Source of the DNA: a virus
Lineage: Duplodnaviria; Heunggongvirae; Uroviricota; Caudoviricetes
Direction: 5' to 3' (one strand)
Virus record (IMG/VR): IMGVR_UViG_3300044846_005772
Length of the DNA stretch: 64,000 nucleotides
Program-made: the position numbers and the translations under genes
Notes under the pieces: generated by a model
Seen by the model: the letters and a program-made list of their open reading frames with translations, nothing else
Databases searched by the model: none
What the model was told of the DNA's origin: nothing
Shown: positions 3,601 through 55,116 of the stretch, piece by piece
Layout: each line of letters begins with the position of its first letter
Numbering within the stretch: the stretch's first letter is position 1

Positions 3601-5025
3601 ATGGAAGACATTCAAAAAACGATTAAAAAGCTAGACTTAAAGCAAAATGCTATCAAGATCTTAATTAATTCTATATACGGAGCTTTTGGAAACAAATGGT
3701 TCTATTTCTATAATCCAGACATAGCACAATCAATTACTCTACAGGGCCAAGATCTTATCAAATTCTCAATCAAAGCAGTAAACCACTATTTTGCGGAGAA
3801 ATGGCATCTTGACTCTGAACTTCATGAAAAATTAGGAATATCTGGTTATAAAATTAATAAGATTGAAGAAGAAGCTGCAATTTACACAGACACTGACTCA
3901 ATCTACGTGCAATTCGATCCTGCTTTAAAATCAATTGAAGGTTATAATCCAGACAATGAAGAAGCTCTTAAGTTATGTATTGCAATTGATGATCTTAGAC
4001 TCTCTAGTTACTTTGATGCGTGCTTTGAGAAATATGGAAAAGTATTCAACACCAAGAATCGTTTGAAATTTAAACTTGAAAATCTTTCAGAACGTGGACT
4101 ATGGTTGAAGAAAAAGAATTATGTTATCAAGGTTTCGTATGAACCTAACTCAAAGCTTGAAGTTATTCCTAAAGATAAACGATATTTGATTATCAAGGGA
4201 CTTGAACCAGTTAAGAGCTCATATCCTACTTGGGCACGCGAACATCTCAAAAAGATGACTGACTATTTGCTTGCTCTCGGTCGTAACTTAAATTTAGAGC
4301 AAGATCTTATTCCTAAACTTCGTTCTCTTAAGGATGAGTTCAATACTCTCCATATTGAAGATATTGCGTTCAACTTCAACATCAGAGTTTACAACAAGTA
4401 CGTAGGTAGCGAGGAGAAACTCGACCTTAAGAAAGGAATATCGATCTTTCCTAGAGCAGCTGCATACCACAATCACCTTCTAATTAAGAAAGGACTGGAT
4501 CAGAAATACTCAAAGATCAGAGAAAAAGATAAAATTAAGTTTTACTATTGCGCTCCAAATGAGCATGAATTTGATGTGTTTGCGTATGTTCCTCAAGTAT
4601 TTCCTGATGAGATTGCTCCACCGATCGATCGAGATCTGCAATTCTTCAATTTAATAGTTGAACCTTTGAACAGGCAGCTCGAAGCAATGGGTGTAAACTC
4701 ACTAACTCCCGACCTAACTCGTCAAGTGGATTTCGTAAAGACTAAAACTAAGAAAGAGATTAAGGAGTCTGACTTCTTCCCGTTATACGTTATTAATAGA
4801 GCAACCTTGGAAACCAGCGAAGTTCCGGAGAAATTTTGGAAAGTTATCGGAAATCCAGAAGCTAAGGTATCCGATGATGATTTTGGCGAGTACTTGGCAA
4901 CTATTACGAGATATGGACTAAATTCAACTATTGTTCCAAAGATAGATCTTGAAAAGTACAAGAAGAAACTTATCAAGAAGATGGAGGAACCAATAGTTGA
5001 GGAGGTTGAGGAAAATGAAGATTGA
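3601..5025 (+). CDS. family B DNA polymerase, C-terminal fragment (motif B, motif C, thumb)
   Basis: N-terminus is KILINSIYGAFG (motif B, Kx3NSxYG); IYTDTDSIYV is motif C. An in-frame TAA lies 2 codons upstream of the ATG. No exonuclease domain or motif A is present. Confidence 0.8.
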   Translation: MEDIQKTIKKLDLKQNAIKILINSIYGAFGNKWFYFYNPDIAQSITLQGQDLIKFSIKAVNHYFAEKWHLDSELHEKLGISGYKINKIEEEAAIYTDTDSIYVQFDPALKSIEGYNPDNEEALKLCIAIDDLRLSSYFDACFEKYGKVFNTKNRLKFKLENLSERGLWLKKKNYVIKVSYEPNSKLEVIPKDKRYLIIKGLEPVKSSYPTWAREHLKKMTDYLLALGRNLNLEQDLIPKLRSLKDEFNTLHIEDIAFNFNIRVYNKYVGSEEKLDLKKGISIFPRAAAYHNHLLIKKGLDQKYSKIREKDKIKFYYCAPNEHEFDVFAYVPQVFPDEIAPPIDRDLQFFNLIVEPLNRQLEAMGVNSLTPDLTRQVDFVKTKTKKEIKESDFFPLYVINRATLETSEVPEKFWKVIGNPEAKVSDDDFGEYLATITRYGLNSTIVPKIDLEKYKKKLIKKMEEPIVEEVEENED

Positions 5026-6166
5026 TTTTCAAATGATGACTGGTTCCAAGTATGAAATAAGCGAGTTTATTAAGGATGTTCTTAAAGTTAGATTTCCAAA
5101 ATCTCCTCTAAAGCAAGAGATAAACGATGAGGATCCTGATAAAATCAATTTCGCATGTCCATACTGTGGAGATTCTGAAAAGGATCAGAACAAGAAGAGA
5201 GGTAATCTCTACTTGACCACCAAAACCTACAAGTGTTTTAATGATGGTTGCATGAAATGGGTTCCATTAAAGACCTTCATTTCTAATTTTGCAAGTAAAT
5301 ATGCATTAAGTATCCCTGATCTCGAGCTTCAAAGAACTGTTGATACTTCAAAAACTAAAGAACGAGAACTAAACATCATAGAGTTTTTAGTAGATAGGCG
5401 AATCGGAGATTCATTATTAAGCATAGAACAAGTAGCTTCTCGATTTTCTCTAACGCCTTGTGCTGAAGCGGAAATTGATTCTCCGATATATGAATACATT
5501 ACTAACCGTAAGTTAAATCATCTACCCGCTTTTGAGAAAAGCTGTTACTTTGATTCTAGAGAAGACAAAATCTATCTTTTTAATTTAGATAATTCATCCG
5601 GTAAAATATTAGGATTTGCTATTCGTCGAATTAGTAATGATTGGAAGGGGCCAAGATACGATATCCGAAACTATTCGGAATTGCAGAAGAGCGGATTAGT
5701 TCGAAGTATTAGCGATGAGTTTTTAGAAAAAATAAATTCAGTAAACAATTTCTTTAATATTTTAAACGTTGACTTTTCAAAACCTATTATGATAACTGAA
5801 GGTCAAATCGACTCAATGTTTCTAAACAATAGCATAGCAACTACTGGAGTAACTAAGAGCAAGAAGATCTTGGGAACCATTGTTAGCAAGAAGAATGCAA
5901 GAATCTTATTTGATCGTGACTCTGCAGGTAAAGGTGAAATGATTGATCTAATAAAGCAAGGCTACAAAGTTTTTCTTTGGAATAAACTAACGTATGATCT
6001 TCGACTAAAACATATGGGAAAATCGAAAGAGATTGATCTTATTAAAGATATTAATGATCTATATCGTTTTTTATCAGAATATGATAGCTCGATGGATTAC
6101 CAAAAATTCAATGTAGTAATCGAACAGTATTTCTCAGAGACAGCCTTCGACCTTATCTTTATCTAA
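5015..6166 (+). CDS. DnaG-like DNA primase (zinc ribbon + TOPRIM)
   Basis: Zinc ribbon CPYCGDS...CFNDGC. TOPRIM motifs ITEGQIDSMF (Glu) and LFDRDSAGKG (DxD). Start chosen at the ATG that overlaps the polymerase stop. Confidence 0.7.
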   Translation: MKIDFQMMTGSKYEISEFIKDVLKVRFPKSPLKQEINDEDPDKINFACPYCGDSEKDQNKKRGNLYLTTKTYKCFNDGCMKWVPLKTFISNFASKYALSIPDLELQRTVDTSKTKERELNIIEFLVDRRIGDSLLSIEQVASRFSLTPCAEAEIDSPIYEYITNRKLNHLPAFEKSCYFDSREDKIYLFNLDNSSGKILGFAIRRISNDWKGPRYDIRNYSELQKSGLVRSISDEFLEKINSVNNFFNILNVDFSKPIMITEGQIDSMFLNNSIATTGVTKSKKILGTIVSKKNARILFDRDSAGKGEMIDLIKQGYKVFLWNKLTYDLRLKHMGKSKEIDLIKDINDLYRFLSEYDSSMDYQKFNVVIEQYFSETAFDLIFI

Positions 6167-6465: not shown

Positions 6466-6969
6466 ATGGCAAAGAAAGAAAGAGATATTCATGACTTTCT
6501 AAAACCCCAAAACGGCAGAGTTCGTCAGGGATACTTTGTGCCTAAAAATCCTCAAAAATACAAGGGTGATCCGACCAAAGTAATTTACAGATCTAGTTGG
6601 GAATTTAAGTTTTTAGATTATTGTGATCAAAACGAACTAGTTGTTGAATACGCATCTGAACCTACTGGGATCCCATACTGGAACCCTATTCTAAAAAAGG
6701 AAAGTACTTATTGGGTAGACTGCTATATGGCAACCAGGCAGCTCGATGGATCGATAAAGAAGTGGCTGATTGAGATCAAGCCAAACAAATATCTAAATCC
6801 TCCCGAGTCTCCGAAGAGACTTACTGAGAAACAGACATTAAACTATGTGCGTCATGCAAAAGCATATATCATCAATGATGCTAAATTCAAAGCAGCAAAG
6901 GTGTACGCTCGTAAGAATAACATGGAGTTCGGGATAATTACTGAAAACTTTCTGTTTAACAAGGCGTAA
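6466..6969 (+). CDS. hypothetical protein (167 aa)
   Basis: ORF in a co-directional block. Confidence 0.5.
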   Translation: MAKKERDIHDFLKPQNGRVRQGYFVPKNPQKYKGDPTKVIYRSSWEFKFLDYCDQNELVVEYASEPTGIPYWNPILKKESTYWVDCYMATRQLDGSIKKWLIEIKPNKYLNPPESPKRLTEKQTLNYVRHAKAYIINDAKFKAAKVYARKNNMEFGIITENFLFNKA

Positions 6970-18726: not shown

Positions 18727-19461
18727 TTATTCTTCGTAGATTAATCGATACGCATCCTGCTGAGCGTTTATGATCTTCTCTATTGAACCGTCTCGTCGTA
18801 ATTCCTTGAAAGCTAGATTCTCTATTGAAAATTCTCCATCTTTCGCAAGACCTTCCTTGCGATCGTTTTGTATCTTTTTTCTAAATCTACCAATATAGTC
18901 ATATAATTCTTGAGCTTCTTCTGAATCTGCCTTCTTGAGGCGATCCATGATCTCAGACATCTCTGATTTAATTACTCTCACCTTTTCAGTAACGTCCCTC
19001 TCGTCGACCTTAGGTTCTTTCCAGGTAGGCGTAATTATCCACTGATTCTTAAGTATTGAAAATAGACCCGACGCTACGTGTTGTTCGTCTTTATGTTGAA
19101 CATAACATTCAACATCATGTCCTCTTAATTGAAGAGCATGGCGTTGGTTCCAGATAAACCTCTGACCGTCCAATGCTTTTCTAACAAGATCCTGATCTTG
19201 ATTGATTTGTCCAAAATCAATTATAAGGTGCACATCTAAGTCAGATGCATTCGTCCAATTGTAATTTGCTAGGGAACCGGTCAATTGAATATCATATAAT
19301 TCAATATCTAGCTTTAATGATTCCCAAAAATCATTTGCAATTGCAAGCAACTTTTCTCTAAGTGCTTCATCCATTTGCATGTTATTCCATACCTTTGGAC
19401 AGAGTTCACGGTGATATTCTACTTTCTCTGAGATGAATTTTGAAAAGCTATGTAATTTCAT
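18727..19461 (-). CDS. minimal nucleotidyltransferase-fold protein (pol-beta/CD-NTase-like signature), N-terminal MKLHSFSKFISE motif
   Basis: GS-x10-SDLDVHLIID fits the [GS]x9-13Dx[DE] signature. Confidence 0.45.
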   Translation of the reverse strand: MKLHSFSKFISEKVEYHRELCPKVWNNMQMDEALREKLLAIANDFWESLKLDIELYDIQLTGSLANYNWTNASDLDVHLIIDFGQINQDQDLVRKALDGQRFIWNQRHALQLRGHDVECYVQHKDEQHVASGLFSILKNQWIITPTWKEPKVDERDVTEKVRVIKSEMSEIMDRLKKADSEEAQELYDYIGRFRKKIQNDRKEGLAKDGEFSIENLAFKELRRDGSIEKIINAQQDAYRLIYEE

Positions 19462-23724: not shown

Positions 23725-24294
23725 ATGAAAATAATCTTTTTGGATATTGACGGTGTGCTGAATTGCCAGGATGCGTATGCTGCCGGTGAATGCGAATATG
23801 TTGAATGGACTAATGGGGATCAACATCAAGCTTTTTGCTCATGGAGCAAAGAATGGTTGAATAAGCTGATTGCTGAAAGTGAGGCAAAGATCGTCATCAG
23901 CTCTACTTGGAGGCATTCAGGCATTGAATATATGAAAAAGGTTTGGGAACTTGAAGGTATGCCTGGCGAAATCATTGGACTTACCCCAAACTTTAGAGGA
24001 GACATCAATGGCTATACTGTACCTCGAGGATGTGAAATTGAGAAGTGGTTAAGAGACAATGGCTTTCATCATATTAATTGGAGCCGTGACGCGCAGAACG
24101 AAAACATTCAAAAATCTGGCATTGAAAACTATTTGATTATTGATGATGATAGTGATATGCTCTACAGCCAAAGACATAACTTTTTGCATGTGCTACCTTC
24201 ACCGAGAAACACTCGTGGATTTGACCGCGATCATTATGTAAAAGGCATGCAAATACTTAGTTGGACAGTAACAGAACAAACATACGGAATATGA
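23725..24294 (+). CDS. HAD-superfamily phosphatase / nucleotidase-like
   Basis: N-terminal IIFLDIDGVLN motif I. Confidence 0.55.
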   Translation: MKIIFLDIDGVLNCQDAYAAGECEYVEWTNGDQHQAFCSWSKEWLNKLIAESEAKIVISSTWRHSGIEYMKKVWELEGMPGEIIGLTPNFRGDINGYTVPRGCEIEKWLRDNGFHHINWSRDAQNENIQKSGIENYLIIDDDSDMLYSQRHNFLHVLPSPRNTRGFDRDHYVKGMQILSWTVTEQTYGI

Positions 24295-43990: not shown

Positions 43991-44065
43991 TGGTAGGTCC
44001 ACCAGGAATCGAACCTGGAATAGAAGCTTAGAAGGCTACTGTTATATCCATTTAACTATGGACCC
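43991..44065 (-). tRNA. tRNA-Arg (anticodon TCT)
   Basis: Acceptor GGGTCCA/TGGACCT, T-arm CCAGG-TTCGATT-CCTGG, anticodon loop CTTCTAA, encoded CCA. One mismatch in the anticodon stem. Confidence 0.55.
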
Positions 44066-46118: not shown

Positions 46119-46404
46119 GTTGCTTTCTTTTTATATTATACTCCAGTATTTGAGAAGGATTTTACTACGGAGTAAATCAAAAAATTGTGCTCAAGATTGG
46201 ACTTGCACCAATACGTTCCTTCGAACTCGTTACCTTAGCGTCTACTATCGGGTACTACATGATTACCTCGCTTCCGCCACTTGAGCATATGTAAAACACA
46301 CTCTCAAGCATTCTACTTCCCGCCCCTACACAAATGCGTAGCACGAAATTGTATCTTACTTAGCCCGTCGCTCGCGGTATGGGTACTTGAGTTTATGTGT
46401 TTCG

Positions 46405-46482
46405 TACCCCCTGAGAGACTCGAACTCTCACCCGAAGACTAGATCCTAAGTCTAGCGCGTCTACCGATTCCGCCAAAGGGGC
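46405..46482 (-). tRNA. tRNA-Leu-like (anticodon TAG), class II D-arm
   Basis: GCGGAATCGGTAGACGC D-arm, anticodon arm CTAGA-CTTAGGA-TCTAG, T-arm GAGAG-TTCGAGT-CTCTC, acceptor GCCCCTT/AGGGGGT. The variable region is only ~9 nt. Confidence 0.45.
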
Positions 46483-46692
46483 ATGATGGAAAACTTGGCT
46501 ACCATACGCGTCGATATGGTCAAGAATTGATTGATGGTTGGTTCCCCATCACCTGATGCCGTGCACAGCAGAGCAGGATCTCCTACATAACAACCCGGGG
46601 CATGATTACTCTCCGTTAAGGTTGCGATCCTCTGAGAGCCGGGTTCTCTTTCAACGGTGCTAATCCGTCCTATGTTAGCTGTTTTCCATTTG

Positions 46693-46829
46693 TAGTCAGG
46701 ACAGGAATCGAACCTGCATAAGTGTTACTGTGCTTCGCACTCCATTTGGTTATTATCAGGCTTTGTGTGAGGTCGCATCTCGTGCTAAACTGTTTTACCC
46801 AAATGACGTTACCATTCCGCCACCTGACT
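46693..46829 (-). tRNA. tRNA-like element 1 (class II ends, 137 nt, aberrant core)
   Basis: 5' AGTCAGGTGGCGGAATGGTAACG and 3' CAGGTTCGATTCCTGTCCTGACTA; no canonical anticodon arm is foldable by eye. Confidence 0.3.
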
Positions 46830-46983
46830 ATTTGTTTACTTTATCATTCCAATTACAATGGCTACAATTTCTAACCATGCAATTATTCCAAAAAATATGT
46901 ATGGTAATCTAAAATCATCCCATGTAGGTTTTTTAAATAACAAAAGAACTTTTAATGCTTCAATCATAACATTGTTGTTTTAG

Positions 46984-47085
46984 TAGTCAGGACAGGATTC
47001 GAACCTGTATGAGATGGTCAAAGCTTTCGCTGCATCTTACGTGGAACTTTGCGGGATCCTGCGTCTACCATTCCGCCACCTGACT
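46984..47085 (-). tRNA. tRNA-like element 2 (102 nt)
   Basis: Same ends (GCGGAATGGTAGACGC D-arm, ACAGG-TTCGAAT-CCTGT T-arm). Candidate anticodon arm GGATC-CCGCAAA-GTTCC has a mismatch and C33. Confidence 0.3.
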
Positions 47086-47161
47086 ATGTTGTTTAGTGGG
47101 ACTCATACCACCATGCTTCATTGCCTTGTATCATGTTTTTTGTTTAAGTTAATTTGTTTAG

Positions 47162-47273
47162 TAGTCAGGACAGGATTCGAACCTGTAAATCTCCAAAATA
47201 AAACTATCTCGAGTTCATTTTATTTCTTAAGGAGTCCATTAGATGGAGCGTCTACCAGTTCCGCCACCTGACT
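47162..47273 (-). tRNA. tRNA-like element 3 (112 nt)
   Basis: Same ends; the core contains a TCCAT-CTA-ATGGA hairpin instead of an anticodon arm. Confidence 0.3.
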
Positions 47274-47279
47274 ATTGTT

Positions 47280-47552
47280 TTACTTACTTACGTAATCCAT
47301 CATCTCACGCATCTTAAGAATCAGCAATTCCATCTCATCCTTATTGAGATACATCCTTGAACTTCCAGTCTTGTCGTCTAACTCCTTGGTTTCCACGATA
47401 ATTCCATTGAACCCCTCGGTTGGATATACATCAACGTTCTGCTCTTCAGTTGCGATTACGACTTTGTGCCAAACTTTATTTTTCATAGCTCTATTTTTAT
47501 TAGTAGTCAGGACAGGATTCGAACCTGTAACCGTAGCAGAGACGGTGCACAT
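47280..47552 (-). CDS. hypothetical protein between tRNA-like elements
   Basis: ORF. Confidence 0.4.
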   Translation of the reverse strand: MCTVSATVTGSNPVLTTNKNRAMKNKVWHKVVIATEEQNVDVYPTEGFNGIIVETKELDDKTGSSRMYLNKDEMELLILKMREMMDYVSK

Positions 47553-47590
47553 CGGGAGGAAACAGCGTCTACCAATTCCGCCACCTGACT
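47504..47590 (-). tRNA. tRNA-like element 4 (87 nt, class II length; anticodon loop CTCCCGA)
   Basis: Segment lengths fit a class II tRNA exactly (GCGGAATTGGTAGACGC; variable arm ACCGT-CTCTGCT-ACGGT; discriminator A). The anticodon stem GTTTC/TGTGC pairs poorly. Confidence 0.4.
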
Positions 47591-47593
47591 ATA

Positions 47594-47881
47594 TTATTCG
47601 CTGCACGGCTGGAACCATGCTTCCCGCTGCACGTATCTCTGACTTAGGGACAGCTGATCCAAGGAGAATGACGCCACCTCGGACTCCACTATAGTAAATT
47701 CAAATCCGTCCTGCACATAGGTCTCAACATGCTTTACCTTTCTGCCCAGCTTACTGGGAAAGTAGGGTCCAAAATTACCCAAAGTCCTGTACACGCCAGA
47801 CCCAATCAAAATCTCCTTGGCCTGTTGCATCTCACCAGCCTGTTCAGCACGGCCGTTAACGTATAACTTAGCAGCTCCCAT
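47594..47881 (-). CDS. hypothetical protein (first GC-rich gene)
   Basis: ORF; composition shifts here. Confidence 0.4.
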   Translation of the reverse strand: MGAAKLYVNGRAEQAGEMQQAKEILIGSGVYRTLGNFGPYFPSKLGRKVKHVETYVQDGFEFTIVESEVASFSLDQLSLSQRYVQREAWFQPCSE

Positions 47882-48137: not shown

Positions 48138-48206
48138 GCCATGTCACCACCATGTCACCACCATGTCACCACCATGTCACCATCATGTCATCGCCATGTC
48201 ATCGCC
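48138..48206. repeat. 11-bp tandem repeat array, about 6 copies of C(A/G)CCATGTCA(C/T)
   Basis: Read directly. ORF-track peptides here (MSPPCHHHV...) are repeat artefacts. Confidence 0.8.
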
Positions 48207-48395: not shown

Positions 48396-49100
48396 GTGCA
48401 GGAGGGCAGAATTATGTACAGGCACGAAGCAGTGGAATACTTGGGGGTCACCTACTCCAAGTTTAGGCGCATGGTGAACAACGGTAACATCAGGTTTACC
48501 GACATGCCGGGTAATCGCAGGATCTATTGGGACGAGGACATCTACCGGGTAGCAGGTAGGCGTAAGGGGCAGAGCGCTAACCAATGCGTGCTCTACTGTC
48601 GGGCCGGCGGCAAACGCGCTAAGACGCTCTTACAGGAACAGAAGCTCCGGTGCACGCGTTGGGCGACCGAGAACGGGTATAGCTTTGACAGGATCTACGA
48701 GGAGTCTGCTCTATCTCAGGACTGGGAAGCCGAACGTCGACCCGCCTTCTACGAGTTACTCAAAGACTGTAGGGACGGTCAGATTAGCATGGTGGTCGTG
48801 GAGACCCCGTGCAGGCTCTCTCGCTGGCACCTGCCCCTCTTCATGAATATCTTGGATTCCTATAACGTGAATCTCTTTATCATCAACAGGCTAGTACAAC
48901 AGCCGGAGTATCTACAGGAACAGGTGGAGGAACTCGTATGGATTACTGAGGAAGCGCAACGACAACGTGAGAATGGCTGGGCGCCGCGCAAGATGCTGGA
49001 GGCGAAGAAGCGCCGTGACAGGGGCCAGGTAATCTGGGCGAAACCCAATCCCGAGATGGGGCACGATCCTGATCAGCACGCGCTTGGCGATCTACTCTAA
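48396..49100 (+). CDS. N-terminal HTH (MerR/excisionase-like) + serine-recombinase-fold domain lacking the catalytic Ser
   Basis: VLYCRAGG in place of YxRVSS. Resolvase-like blocks GYSFDRIYEE, RPAFYELL and ISMVVVETPCRLSR. IS607-TnpA-like domain order. Confidence 0.5.
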   Translation: MQEGRIMYRHEAVEYLGVTYSKFRRMVNNGNIRFTDMPGNRRIYWDEDIYRVAGRRKGQSANQCVLYCRAGGKRAKTLLQEQKLRCTRWATENGYSFDRIYEESALSQDWEAERRPAFYELLKDCRDGQISMVVVETPCRLSRWHLPLFMNILDSYNVNLFIINRLVQQPEYLQEQVEELVWITEEAQRQRENGWAPRKMLEAKKRRDRGQVIWAKPNPEMGHDPDQHALGDLL

Positions 49101-54402: not shown

Positions 54403-55116
54403 TTATTTAGACATTACTTCCAATGCGCTCTTCGCGATCTGACAAACACGGATCTGAGTAAGACCGAATTCCTCAGCAACTTCAGCGCTGCTACGTGGCT
54501 CCTCATAGCCGATGCCGTACAGCATCTTCATGATAGCATGGTCACGATCCTTGAGGCGAGCTAATCGACGTTTCAACTCATGATCAACAAACTCGTCATT
54601 GATCACGTGATAGATATCGGGTTGACAGTTAGCATAACGTTCGCCGACCGTCGTCTCGCTGTCTTCTGAGATGGGCGCATCCAATTGTACAGGTCGGAAG
54701 TTGGGTGTTTCCAAACCCGCTTTCTTCTTCTTGTAAACATCGTATTCCTGATTCATGGGAATCCTAACGATTTTACCGACGGTCGCGACCGCCTCGTTAC
54801 AGTGCTTGCGAATCCATAGACTGGCATAGGTAGAAAATCGTGTATCTCTATCTGCGGTAAAACGTTCAGCTGCTGCGATCAGACCCAAGTTACCTTCTTG
54901 GATTAGGTCATCGATTGGAACGCCCTGACCGATAAATCGATTGGCGATCTTCACCACCAACTTTAGGTTATGACGAACTAATTCGTCCACCGCACGACGA
55001 TCGCCGGTCTGGATTCTAGCAGCTAGTGCATGCTCTTCTTCCTTGCTAAGAGGAGATAATCCCTTAATGGTCTTGAAATATTTTGGAAGACCTTCTGTTG
55101 ATTCGAATTTAGACAT
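54403..55116 (-). CDS. RNA polymerase sigma factor, sigma-70 family (regions 2, 3, 4)
   Basis: Region 2 DLIQEGNLGLIAAAERF...FSTYASLWIRK; region 4 SSAEVAEEFGLTQIRVCQIAKSALEVM. Confidence 0.8.
   Translation of the reverse strand: MSKFESTEGLPKYFKTIKGLSPLSKEEEHALAARIQTGDRRAVDELVRHNLKLVVKIANRFIGQGVPIDDLIQEGNLGLIAAAERFTADRDTRFSTYASLWIRKHCNEAVATVGKIVRIPMNQEYDVYKKKKAGLETPNFRPVQLDAPISEDSETTVGERYANCQPDIYHVINDEFVDHELKRRLARLKDRDHAIMKMLYGIGYEEPRSSAEVAEEFGLTQIRVCQIAKSALEVMSK

Follow-up and report, generated by a model that had tools for sequence, protein, structure and literature searches.

What kind of gene keeps both ends of a tRNA around a middle that changes from copy to copy? The question is raised by four elements, here called E1 to E4 in order of position (Table 1), all on the minus strand of a 64,000-nt stretch of viral DNA from the Caudoviricetes record IMGVR_UViG_3300044846_005772 in IMG/VR. 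This stretch, referred to below as the window, belongs to a T4-like myovirus (Portal_T4, family-B DNA polymerase). An earlier note, made from the letters alone, had placed the four elements exactly and missed their strand; matches to the Rfam tRNA family RF00005 fall at the same positions, and the lengths of 87, 102, 112 and 137 nt are confirmed. The explanation favored here, with moderate confidence, is that the elements are genes of modular noncoding RNAs (ncRNAs) built on a chassis derived from tRNA-Leu, in which a payload specific to each copy stands in for the anticodon and variable arms. The chassis comprises a 7-bp acceptor stem (AGUCAGG/CCUGACU), the discriminator A73, a class-II D-arm of the Leu type, the T-arm ACAGG-UUCGAAU-CCUGU, and a 15-48 Levitt pair. 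The payload consists of one to three helices that differ from copy to copy.

The shared frame and its variable cores

E1 to E4 have the acceptor stem, Leu-type D-arm, and T-arm in common and are wholly different in between. All begin with AGUCAGG-UG-GCGGAA and end with [A/G]CAGG-UUCGA(A/U)U-CCUGU-CCUGACU-A. The common 5' and 3' blocks described earlier are thus real, but the 3' block is 25 nt long rather than 27, and two copies deviate: E1 has GCAGG, the T-loop UUCGAUU, and the D-arm GGUAACGU, and E3 has GGAACUGG. The 15-mer AGTCAGGTGGCGGAA occurs in four exact copies in the window, where 0.75 would be expected even with up to three mismatches allowed. The four elements score 35.8-46.6 bits against the Rfam tRNA model (gathering score 29), whose alignments skip 29-76 nt at the anticodon/variable region in three of the four and give E2 a 31-nt insert in the variable region. 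A covariance model, R1, was built from 46 payload-less chassis, all from members outside the window; the window elements match it significantly, the halves of E1 separately (29.0 and 10.8 bits), and the canonical tRNAs of the window score 18.1 and 11.0 bits.

The frame of a canonical tRNA is present in these elements, including the 7-bp acceptor stem, a D-arm with G18G19, a T-arm with a UUCRANY loop, and the discriminator. The anticodon part is absent: there is no 5-bp stem with a 7-nt loop bearing U33 and a purine at position 37, and no anticodon consistent with the identity of the frame. The earlier note had likewise seen no convincing anticodon arm, and ARAGORN, one of the programs it proposed as a check, does not return four standard tRNAs; it skips E1 to E3 and reports E4 alone, as a dubious Arg-CCG. 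E2 has a stem resembling an anticodon arm, with the loop CCGCAAA lacking U33, plus a long extra arm capped by a GAAA tetraloop.

These features belong to a large family. The exact 24-mer formed by the T-arm and the 3' acceptor half occurs in at least 120 IMG/VR viral contigs, often in several copies per contig, and the 5' 16-mer occurs in at least 120 additional contigs. In all loci retrieved, whose family counts are lower bounds, the chassis (AGUCAGG...ACAGGUUCGAAUCCUGU-CCUGACU-A) frames at least 330 elements in 211 loci, nearly all on contigs of uncultured phages. Among the 330 elements are 294 different sequences, with lengths of 55-246 nt and a median of 104 nt. Clustered by similarity, the cores form at least 235 groups (206 with a single member), and the payload types, each about 20-130 nt long, are unrelated to one another. 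An unbiased search of the same loci for any acceptor-plus-T-arm frame ties this variability in length to the present acceptor and its one-nucleotide variants; frames with other acceptors measure 71-75 or 85-87 nt.

Among 185,579 species genomes, the chassis occurs in 18 contigs, all of them from metagenome-assembled genomes (MAGs) of lakes, streams, or effluent and about half binned as Bacteroidota. All 20 copies extractable from the MAG contigs are non-canonical and have yet other cores. Bacteroidota are suggested as the likely hosts only by these bin names. The chassis is found in no isolate genome and in none of 50,697 deposited phage genomes, and no cellular parent tRNA occurs among the species genomes. 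Rfam scans yield no dedicated family for the elements, and a search of the full-text literature found no description of such a family; the chassis elements apparently constitute a large phage RNA family undescribed so far.

Could the elements nonetheless decode? Unconventional tRNA-Leu genes with an intron, a giant variable arm, or a suppressor function would fit the scores above the Rfam gathering threshold, the Leu-type D-arm and A73, and the somewhat enriched ‘Leu’ calls of ARAGORN in intron mode (27 of 144). However, most members lack a 7-nt anticodon loop with U33, most lack a Leu anticodon, and the putative anticodons are spread over 22 specificities; payloads range from a tetraloop hairpin to more than 100 nt, with hundreds of cores in one frame. 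A decoding role is therefore very improbable. The intron-containing tRNAs proposed in the earlier note fail on similar grounds. Intron mode makes 144 calls on 247 distinct members, scattered over the same 22 specificities, and leaves no consistent anticodon arm, and a group I intron would not fit in inserts of this size. Without introns, ARAGORN calls one of the four window elements and 38 of the 247 family members, again with scattered anticodons. Many chassis elements are annotated by ARAGORN and Rfam as tRNAs whose anticodons are arbitrary, in intron mode including ‘Pyl’, ‘SeC’, and ‘Stop’. Such spurious calls, of which the ‘tRNA-Arg CCG’ of E4 is an example, inflate phage tRNA censuses, distort inferences about codon usage and recoding, and produce false suppressor annotations in viral metagenomes.

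Covariation in the frame and conservation of the payloads

Standard pairing at the acceptor and T-stem positions holds in at least 97% of the 247 distinct elements, and the exceptions are nearly all G.U wobbles or double compensations. To avoid circularity, a sample unbiased for the chassis was anchored on a single payload type, GCCAUUGGGG-N5-CCAAGAAAG, which is present in 43 viral contigs. Nearly all copies of this payload lie in a tRNA-like frame, about 36 of them in the standard one; the copy in L113 has no recognizable D-arm or 5' half. The non-standard frames are fully compensated, with the acceptor AGUGGUA/UGCCGCU and the T-stems GUAGG/CCUAC, ACAUG/CAUGU, and GUUGG/CCAGC. From 22 distinct rows of this payload-anchored sample, RNAalifold recovers the acceptor, D-stem, T-arm, and one payload helix; 99.6% of the cells pair. 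Double-sided changes occur in 10 of 25 pairs, as compared with 1.4±1.0 in shuffles (none of 500 as high) and 0-3 in slid controls.

Among the variants listed for the 3' half of the acceptor, the 5' half being fixed, 12 changes within the helix preserve wobble pairing and none is disruptive (manual tally). Because these variants keep wobble pairing and none disrupts it, selection acts on the RNA of this strand rather than on the DNA. The tertiary core of a tRNA is also kept: U8, A14, G18G19, and the U54U55C56 T-loop are conserved, and G53-C61 is found in 247 of 247 elements. The Levitt pair is A15-U48 in 199 of 247, with C48 in five of the nine cases that have G15, and the variable insert nearly always ends in U48. 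A73 is present in 182 of 189 (96%) and U3-A70 in 243 of 247.

The nucleotides kept in the frame bear directly on readings at the level of DNA, in which the ends are recombination or attachment sites (integration scars or cassette borders like integron attC) or homology arms that shuffle neighboring genes. Conserved ends around variable middles, shuffled flanks with a few pairs that have one flank in common, and a serine-recombinase open reading frame (ORF) at 48396-49100, 0.8 kb away, would suit such elements. Yet the substitutions keep the pairing of one RNA strand, with G.U but not A.C within the helix, and the tRNA tertiary nucleotides and Levitt pair are conserved. The elements always point the same way as the tRNAs, a recombinase is not a regular neighbor, and the two flanks are discordant in only four of 666 pairs. 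We regard a DNA-level role as quite improbable. Serial integration scars at the end of a tRNA, another proposal of the earlier note, are contradicted by a fold that is always complete and covarying, by hundreds of cores, and by the lack of a cellular parent tRNA or a linked integrase. Duplication of an att site was also rejected: every copy has both halves, the 185,579 species genomes yielded no parent tRNA, and no conserved neighboring protein was found.

The payloads are conserved as well. Orthologous cores are 85-97% identical between contigs, and their 300-nt flanks are no more alike than noise. E2 and its orthologue in L068 are 95% identical over 117 nt, confined to the element, between unrelated flanks; a dedicated scan for further E2 orthologues returned L068 alone. 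E3 is 83% identical to a copy in L056, where the stems AAAUAAAA/UUUUAUUU and GAAUAGAA/UUUUAUUC correspond around an invariant 14-nt loop and even the D-arm has drifted. Other payload stems covary in the same manner, UUGAA/UUCAA with AGCAA/UUGCU around GCUGGGUAA, and GGUCCA/UGGACG with GGCCCA/UGGGCG. In the 43-member payload family, neither flank is common in 636 of 666 pairs. In constrained folds, the part between D-arm and T-arm forms one to three additional helices, and GNRA tetraloops recur in the sequences by eye. Because orthologues are 85-97% identical and carry compensatory changes while their flanks are unrelated, the payloads are under selection and are not junk.

The same observations dispose of most of the pseudogene proposal. 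Decaying tRNA genes would account for the aberrant anticodon region, but hardly for extreme conservation of the chassis and covarying helices over at least 211 loci, nor for conserved payloads; their probability is close to negligible. The milder suggestion, pseudogenes retained for their ends, is correct in that selection on the ends is strong, but conservation and covariation extend to the cores.

Near-invariance of the acceptor and T-stem across unrelated phages possibly reflects a sequence-specific partner or homology-driven exchange of payloads. It also speaks for a decoy or sponge, in which the chassis is the active part and the diversity of payloads is secondary, and which would occupy a host factor that reads the acceptor, T-arm, or elbow (a tRNA-targeting defense nuclease or toxin, an aminoacyl-tRNA synthetase, or EF-Tu). 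Several copies per genome, and the RNA-repair-type phosphatase domain HAD_SAK_2 in this phage, which hints at RNA-targeting conflicts, are in keeping with a decoy, and phage tRNAs are known to counter tRNA-directed defenses (bioRxiv 10.1101/2023.03.15.532788). A decoy does not account for the strong conservation and structure of single payloads, however, and known anticodon nucleases read an anticodon loop that chassis elements lack; it is an unlikely alternative to the modular ncRNAs favored here.

A second insertion in addition to the payload is found in the D-loop of several elements, between A15/U16 and G18 (L209, L226, L227, L231, L235, and L096, and the window element at 46188-46286). 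The L209 group has a payload whose other contigs are missing this D-loop insert. In the window, the insertion lies where the earlier note described degenerate fragments at 46200-46300, which are a complete but divergent element (E5). E5 is not called by ARAGORN and has no match in the Rfam scans of the window, and its minimum free energy (MFE) z-score is +1.2, computed on a slightly offset stretch (46194-46297) from which the final 6 nt of the 3' half of the acceptor are missing. Its R1 score (Table 1) exceeds those of the canonical window tRNAs, and E5 is tentatively a divergent fifth chassis member with a D-loop insertion.

Gene context, proposed maturation, and possible charging

The elements lie in the genome as tRNA genes do. 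All 186 element-tRNA pairs are co-oriented and none is opposed. U is found at position -1 of 83% of chassis elements and C follows the discriminator in 97%, before an A-rich trailer; the canonical tRNAs of the same phages have this context too, with U at -1 in 71% and N73-C-AAA. In the window, T at -1 and AC at 73/74 are found in each of the four elements. The nearest ORFs are co-oriented with the elements 490 times and opposed 106 times, and about 30% lie no more than 20-40 nt away; ORFs and elements of the window are 3-17 nt apart (Table 1). Neither promoters, in a scan for the sigma-70 type only, nor intrinsic terminators are in excess of chance around the elements. Such an arrangement would be expected if the elements were co-transcribed with their neighbors and then cut out by the enzymes of tRNA maturation, as we infer.

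The modular ncRNAs would accordingly be transcribed together with the adjoining small ORFs and canonical tRNAs. Host tRNA maturation would excise them, with RNase P cleaving at U-1/A+1, a 3' cut near A73/C74, and subsequent addition of CCA, and they would accumulate as stable L-shaped RNAs. The chassis would serve as a handle for processing and stability, and possibly also for LeuRS and EF-Tu, and the payload would have a specific task, probably the binding of a host or phage macromolecule.

Mitochondrial tRNAs punctuate polycistronic transcripts. The phage elements could likewise be pure punctuation, a tRNA-like frame that marks RNase P/Z cleavage sites between the mRNAs of polycistronic transcripts around a core that is tolerated filler. 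They abut co-oriented ORFs, their -1 and +74 context is that of real tRNAs, invariance is limited to the parts relevant to RNase P while payload length is free, and the MFE z-score of the cores is weak. What punctuation leaves unexplained is the payload itself, whose identity stays at 85-97% when the context is unrelated and the D-arm itself drifts, and which has conserved loops and covarying stems. Any ordinary tRNA could serve as a cleavage signal, moreover, and a dedicated invariant chassis would be unnecessary. Pure punctuation is unlikely on this evidence; of the earlier suggestion that the elements are tRNA-like processing signals, the tRNA-like context and abutted co-oriented ORFs stand, and conservation of the payloads indicates more than punctuation.

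The class of the chassis also bears on its possible aminoacylation. E. coli LeuRS requires A73, A15-U48, G18G19, A20a, and contacts joining the D-loop to the T-loop, and is independent of the anticodon and variable arm, such that a minimal tRNALeu lacking both is still charged (reviewed in PMC9976931). The chassis has all of these features, with the D-loop AAU(U)GGUAG and the T-loop UUCGAAU. Because its conserved parts match the E. coli identity set and the replaced arms are those that LeuRS ignores, the chassis RNAs may be leucylated and hence bound by EF-Tu, a suggestion that is tentative and somewhat short of an even chance.

Broader still, and rather doubtful, is a portable natural ‘RNA display’, in which a single leucylatable chassis would exploit host tRNA enzymes (possibly including LeuRS and EF-Tu) and present hundreds of payloads swapped between unrelated phages as an arsenal for host takeover or counter-defense. 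The invariant chassis would then be both a recognition handle and a pair of homology arms for payload exchange, and the carriers would be uncultured and mostly freshwater phages. Such a pool of payloads is comparable to the pools of protein ‘morons’ and anti-defense genes. There is a substantial chance that a portable system of chassis plus payload represents a new principle beyond the tRNA-like ncRNAs already known.

Several observations weigh against the modular ncRNAs and their proposed functions. The cores have only mildly negative MFE z-scores (mean -0.5, from a run with a poor D-stem heuristic), and in 14 loci rich in elements, a permissive scan with Rfam gave matches to tRNA and freshwater-1 only and none to a payload. 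No shared payload motif was found, k-mer enrichment returning only residual pieces of the D-arm. No antisense targets are evident in the window genes, the scope of that scan, in which the longest complementary runs of 10-11 nt equal those of shuffles. No conserved protein neighbor emerges from ORF clustering over 139 loci, where the best family occurs in 15. The payloads of E1 and E4 are singletons in the sample, and selection on them is extrapolated from the family. Generic processing leaves the near-invariant sequences of the acceptor and T-stem without account. The ‘Leu identity set’ consists largely of generic nucleotides required by any L-shaped tRNA, and leucylation is rated no higher for this reason; the set is moreover that of E. 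coli, not of the Bacteroidota, the likely hosts. The fold, its covariation, the size of the family, the conservation of payloads, and the tRNA-like gene context are shown by the data; expression, processing, CCA addition, charging, and payload function are inferred.

If the explanation is true, the synthetic tRNA scaffold has, in these elements, a natural equivalent for the first time, and tRNA maturation is a general platform for expression of phage ncRNAs. The family would be a large reservoir of selected structured RNAs (at least 235 types), among which aptamer-like RNAs that inhibit or regulate host processes may be sought. The match between chassis conservation and LeuRS identity yields a testable hypothesis, that bacteria contain aminoacylated viral RNAs without an anticodon.

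Neighboring features and comparison with known systems

The cluster also contains a canonical tRNA-Leu(UAG) and a freshwater-1 RNA, both missed in the earlier note (Table 1).

Table 1. Chassis elements and adjoining features of the window (ORF, open reading frame; R1, covariance model of the chassis).
Feature	Position	Strand	Description
tRNA-Arg(UCU), canonical	43991..44065	-	Edge of the tRNA/ncRNA region; ARAGORN, Rfam
E5	46188..46286	-	Divergent, chassis-like (tentative); acceptor GCUCAAG/CUUGAGC, D-loop insertion, T-loop UGCAAGU; R1 23.5 bits, E 3e-4
Candidate conserved structured RNA	46296..46403	-	About 105 nt with a long closing stem; MFE z-score -2.0
tRNA-Leu(UAG), canonical	46404..46482	-	ARAGORN; Rfam 56.4 bits; D-arm almost identical to the chassis D-arm
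Freshwater-1 RNA (RF02979)	46526..46587	-	72.1 bits (gathering score 72); inside the cluster, between tRNA-Leu and E1
E1	46693..46829	-	Chassis element, 137 nt, payload 88 nt; variant T-loop UUCGAUU; Rfam tRNA 35.8 bits
Small hydrophobic-looking ORF, 43 aa	46836..46967	-	Start 16 nt past E2, stop 6 nt before E1
E2	46984..47085	-	Chassis element, 102 nt; Rfam tRNA 46.6 bits; R1 59.9 bits
E3	47162..47273	-	Chassis element, 112 nt; long payload hairpin, invariant 14-nt loop; Rfam tRNA 38.4 bits; R1 47.7 bits
Small ORF, 68 aa from ATG at 47486	47280..47486	-	Start 17 nt past the 3' end of E4, stop 6 nt before E3
E4	47504..47590	-	Chassis element, 87 nt, payload 36 nt; Rfam tRNA 40.5 bits; R1 61.7 bits, E 5.6e-15; ARAGORN dubious Arg-CCG
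Small ORF, 95 aa	47594..47881	-	Stop codon 3 nt before the 5' end of E4

Freshwater-1 is also found within the tRNA/chassis cluster of L015 (4124-4186; 70.1 bits, slightly under the gathering score), and because of this recurrence the motif appears to belong to phage tRNA/ncRNA clusters. The candidate RNA at 46296-46403 (-) is 90.8% identical over 109 nt to positions 2365-2472 of L002, an otherwise unrelated contig in which a chassis element lies 2 nt further on. The spacer between freshwater-1 and E1 (46588-46692, minus strand) is 77% identical to L052 6781-6900, folds weakly (z-score -0.66), and may be another RNA or a leader. Of the small ORFs, the one of 95 aa has no Pfam or PHROG match, and the one of 68 aa has blastn nucleotide matches in L024 and L043.

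The earlier note placed the cluster exactly at a compositional junction between two genome arms. The shift in GC content is real but gradual: the first 42 kb or so have 0.33-0.37, and values past about 42-44 kb are 0.43-0.53. On the right arm (about 42000-64000), most ORFs are small and on the minus strand, and a sigma-70-family factor is encoded at 54403-55116; this arm could be either a true mosaic or the product of chimeric assembly. The serine recombinase at 48396-49100 (+) has an N-terminal helix-turn-helix (Resolvase plus HTH_17; PHROG ‘transposase’) and lies in a patch of 53% GC. Adjoining it at 48139-48201 is an 11-bp tandem repeat, CCATGTCACCA, in 5.7 copies. The two may represent an IS607-like insertion bordering the RNA cluster; the vicinity of the recombinase contains no recognizable TnpB.

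Elsewhere in the window, the ORF at 23725-24294 (+) has the HAD_SAK_2 domain (‘Swiss-army-knife’ RNA-repair phosphatase, E 5e-21), and the ORF at 18727-19461 (-) has a weak match to a nucleotidyltransferase resembling poly(A) polymerase (E 3e-4, below the cut-off). These two hint that RNA-end chemistry and RNA repair are relevant to the phage. No CCA-adding enzyme, RNA ligase, or Ro60 was found in Pfam/PHROG scans of the window proteins. Two overlapping ORFs at 3601-5025 and 4997-6166 (+) carry the family-B DNA polymerase signal in only part of the first, and the gene may be split or frameshifted. An ORF resembling a TnsA endonuclease (6466-6969, plus strand) lies 300 nt downstream of the polymerase ORFs, with an 88-aa ORF between.

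The closest functional analogue of the chassis elements is the engineered tRNA scaffold, and their closest natural architecture is the tRNA-like domain of tmRNA. The scaffold of Ponchon and Dardel (discussed in PMC3753655) keeps the acceptor, D-, and T-arms of a tRNA, has an arbitrary structured RNA in place of the anticodon arm, and gains processing by tRNA enzymes and protection from nucleases from its frame. In contrast to the man-made scaffold, the chassis is natural and phage-borne, derives from a class-II (Leu) tRNA, has hundreds of evolved payloads, and takes insertions in the D-loop too.

In tmRNA, the ends form an acceptor stem and T-arm, the D-region is reduced, and a large insertion replaces the anticodon arm. 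Aminoacylation of tmRNA is independent of an anticodon. The chassis elements differ from tmRNA in having U3-A70 (243 of 247) rather than G3:U70, no tag ORF or series of pseudoknots, a much smaller size, and a full canonical D-arm. They are not tmRNAs; an ARAGORN tmRNA search and Rfam were also negative.

Like the chassis elements, T4 species 1 and 2 (rnaC and rnaD) are small stable RNAs encoded among the tRNAs of a T4-type phage. T4 rnaC (L121 2909-3047, minus strand) ends in a perfect tRNA-type T-arm, CCGGGUUCGAAUCCCGG, and an acceptor-like 3' strand that pairs with an internal segment, and is a partial tRNA mimic. The T4 RNAs lack the chassis sequence, however, and the Rfam tRNA model is silent on them (best match tRNA-Sec, 17.5 bits). 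No hypervariable family is known for these RNAs, and homology was rejected, the resemblance being that of a generic T-arm only. In the TMERs of MHV68 and the mascRNA of MALAT1, a tRNA-like module recruits RNase P or RNase Z and frees a linked functional RNA. These are eukaryotic systems, in which the cargo lies 3' or 5' of the tRNA-like unit and is not embedded in place of the anticodon arm.

GOLLD is reportedly found in lake metagenomes. GOLLD and ROOL (PMC5737381) are enigmatic structured phage RNAs that adjoin tRNAs and are probably co-transcribed with them, but they are very large and lack a tRNA frame. YrlA RNAs (PMC4201824), some of them phage-encoded, are modular ncRNAs in which a tRNA-like domain is fused to another module. 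Their topology is inverted relative to the chassis, with the tRNA-like part internal and a Ro-binding stem at the ends. A YrlA or Y RNA-like identity was rejected for the chassis elements, whose RNA ends form an acceptor stem and which have no such Rfam match; no TROVE/Ro60 domain occurs among the scanned window proteins. The tRNA-like structures of plant RNA viruses (PMC7749636, PMC8127992, PMC10870377) are viral tRNA mimics that keep aminoacyl-tRNA synthetase identity with an altered anticodon-arm architecture. They are cis elements with pseudoknots at the 3' termini of RNA genomes, whereas each chassis element is a separate gene in a DNA phage and has a genuine acceptor helix.

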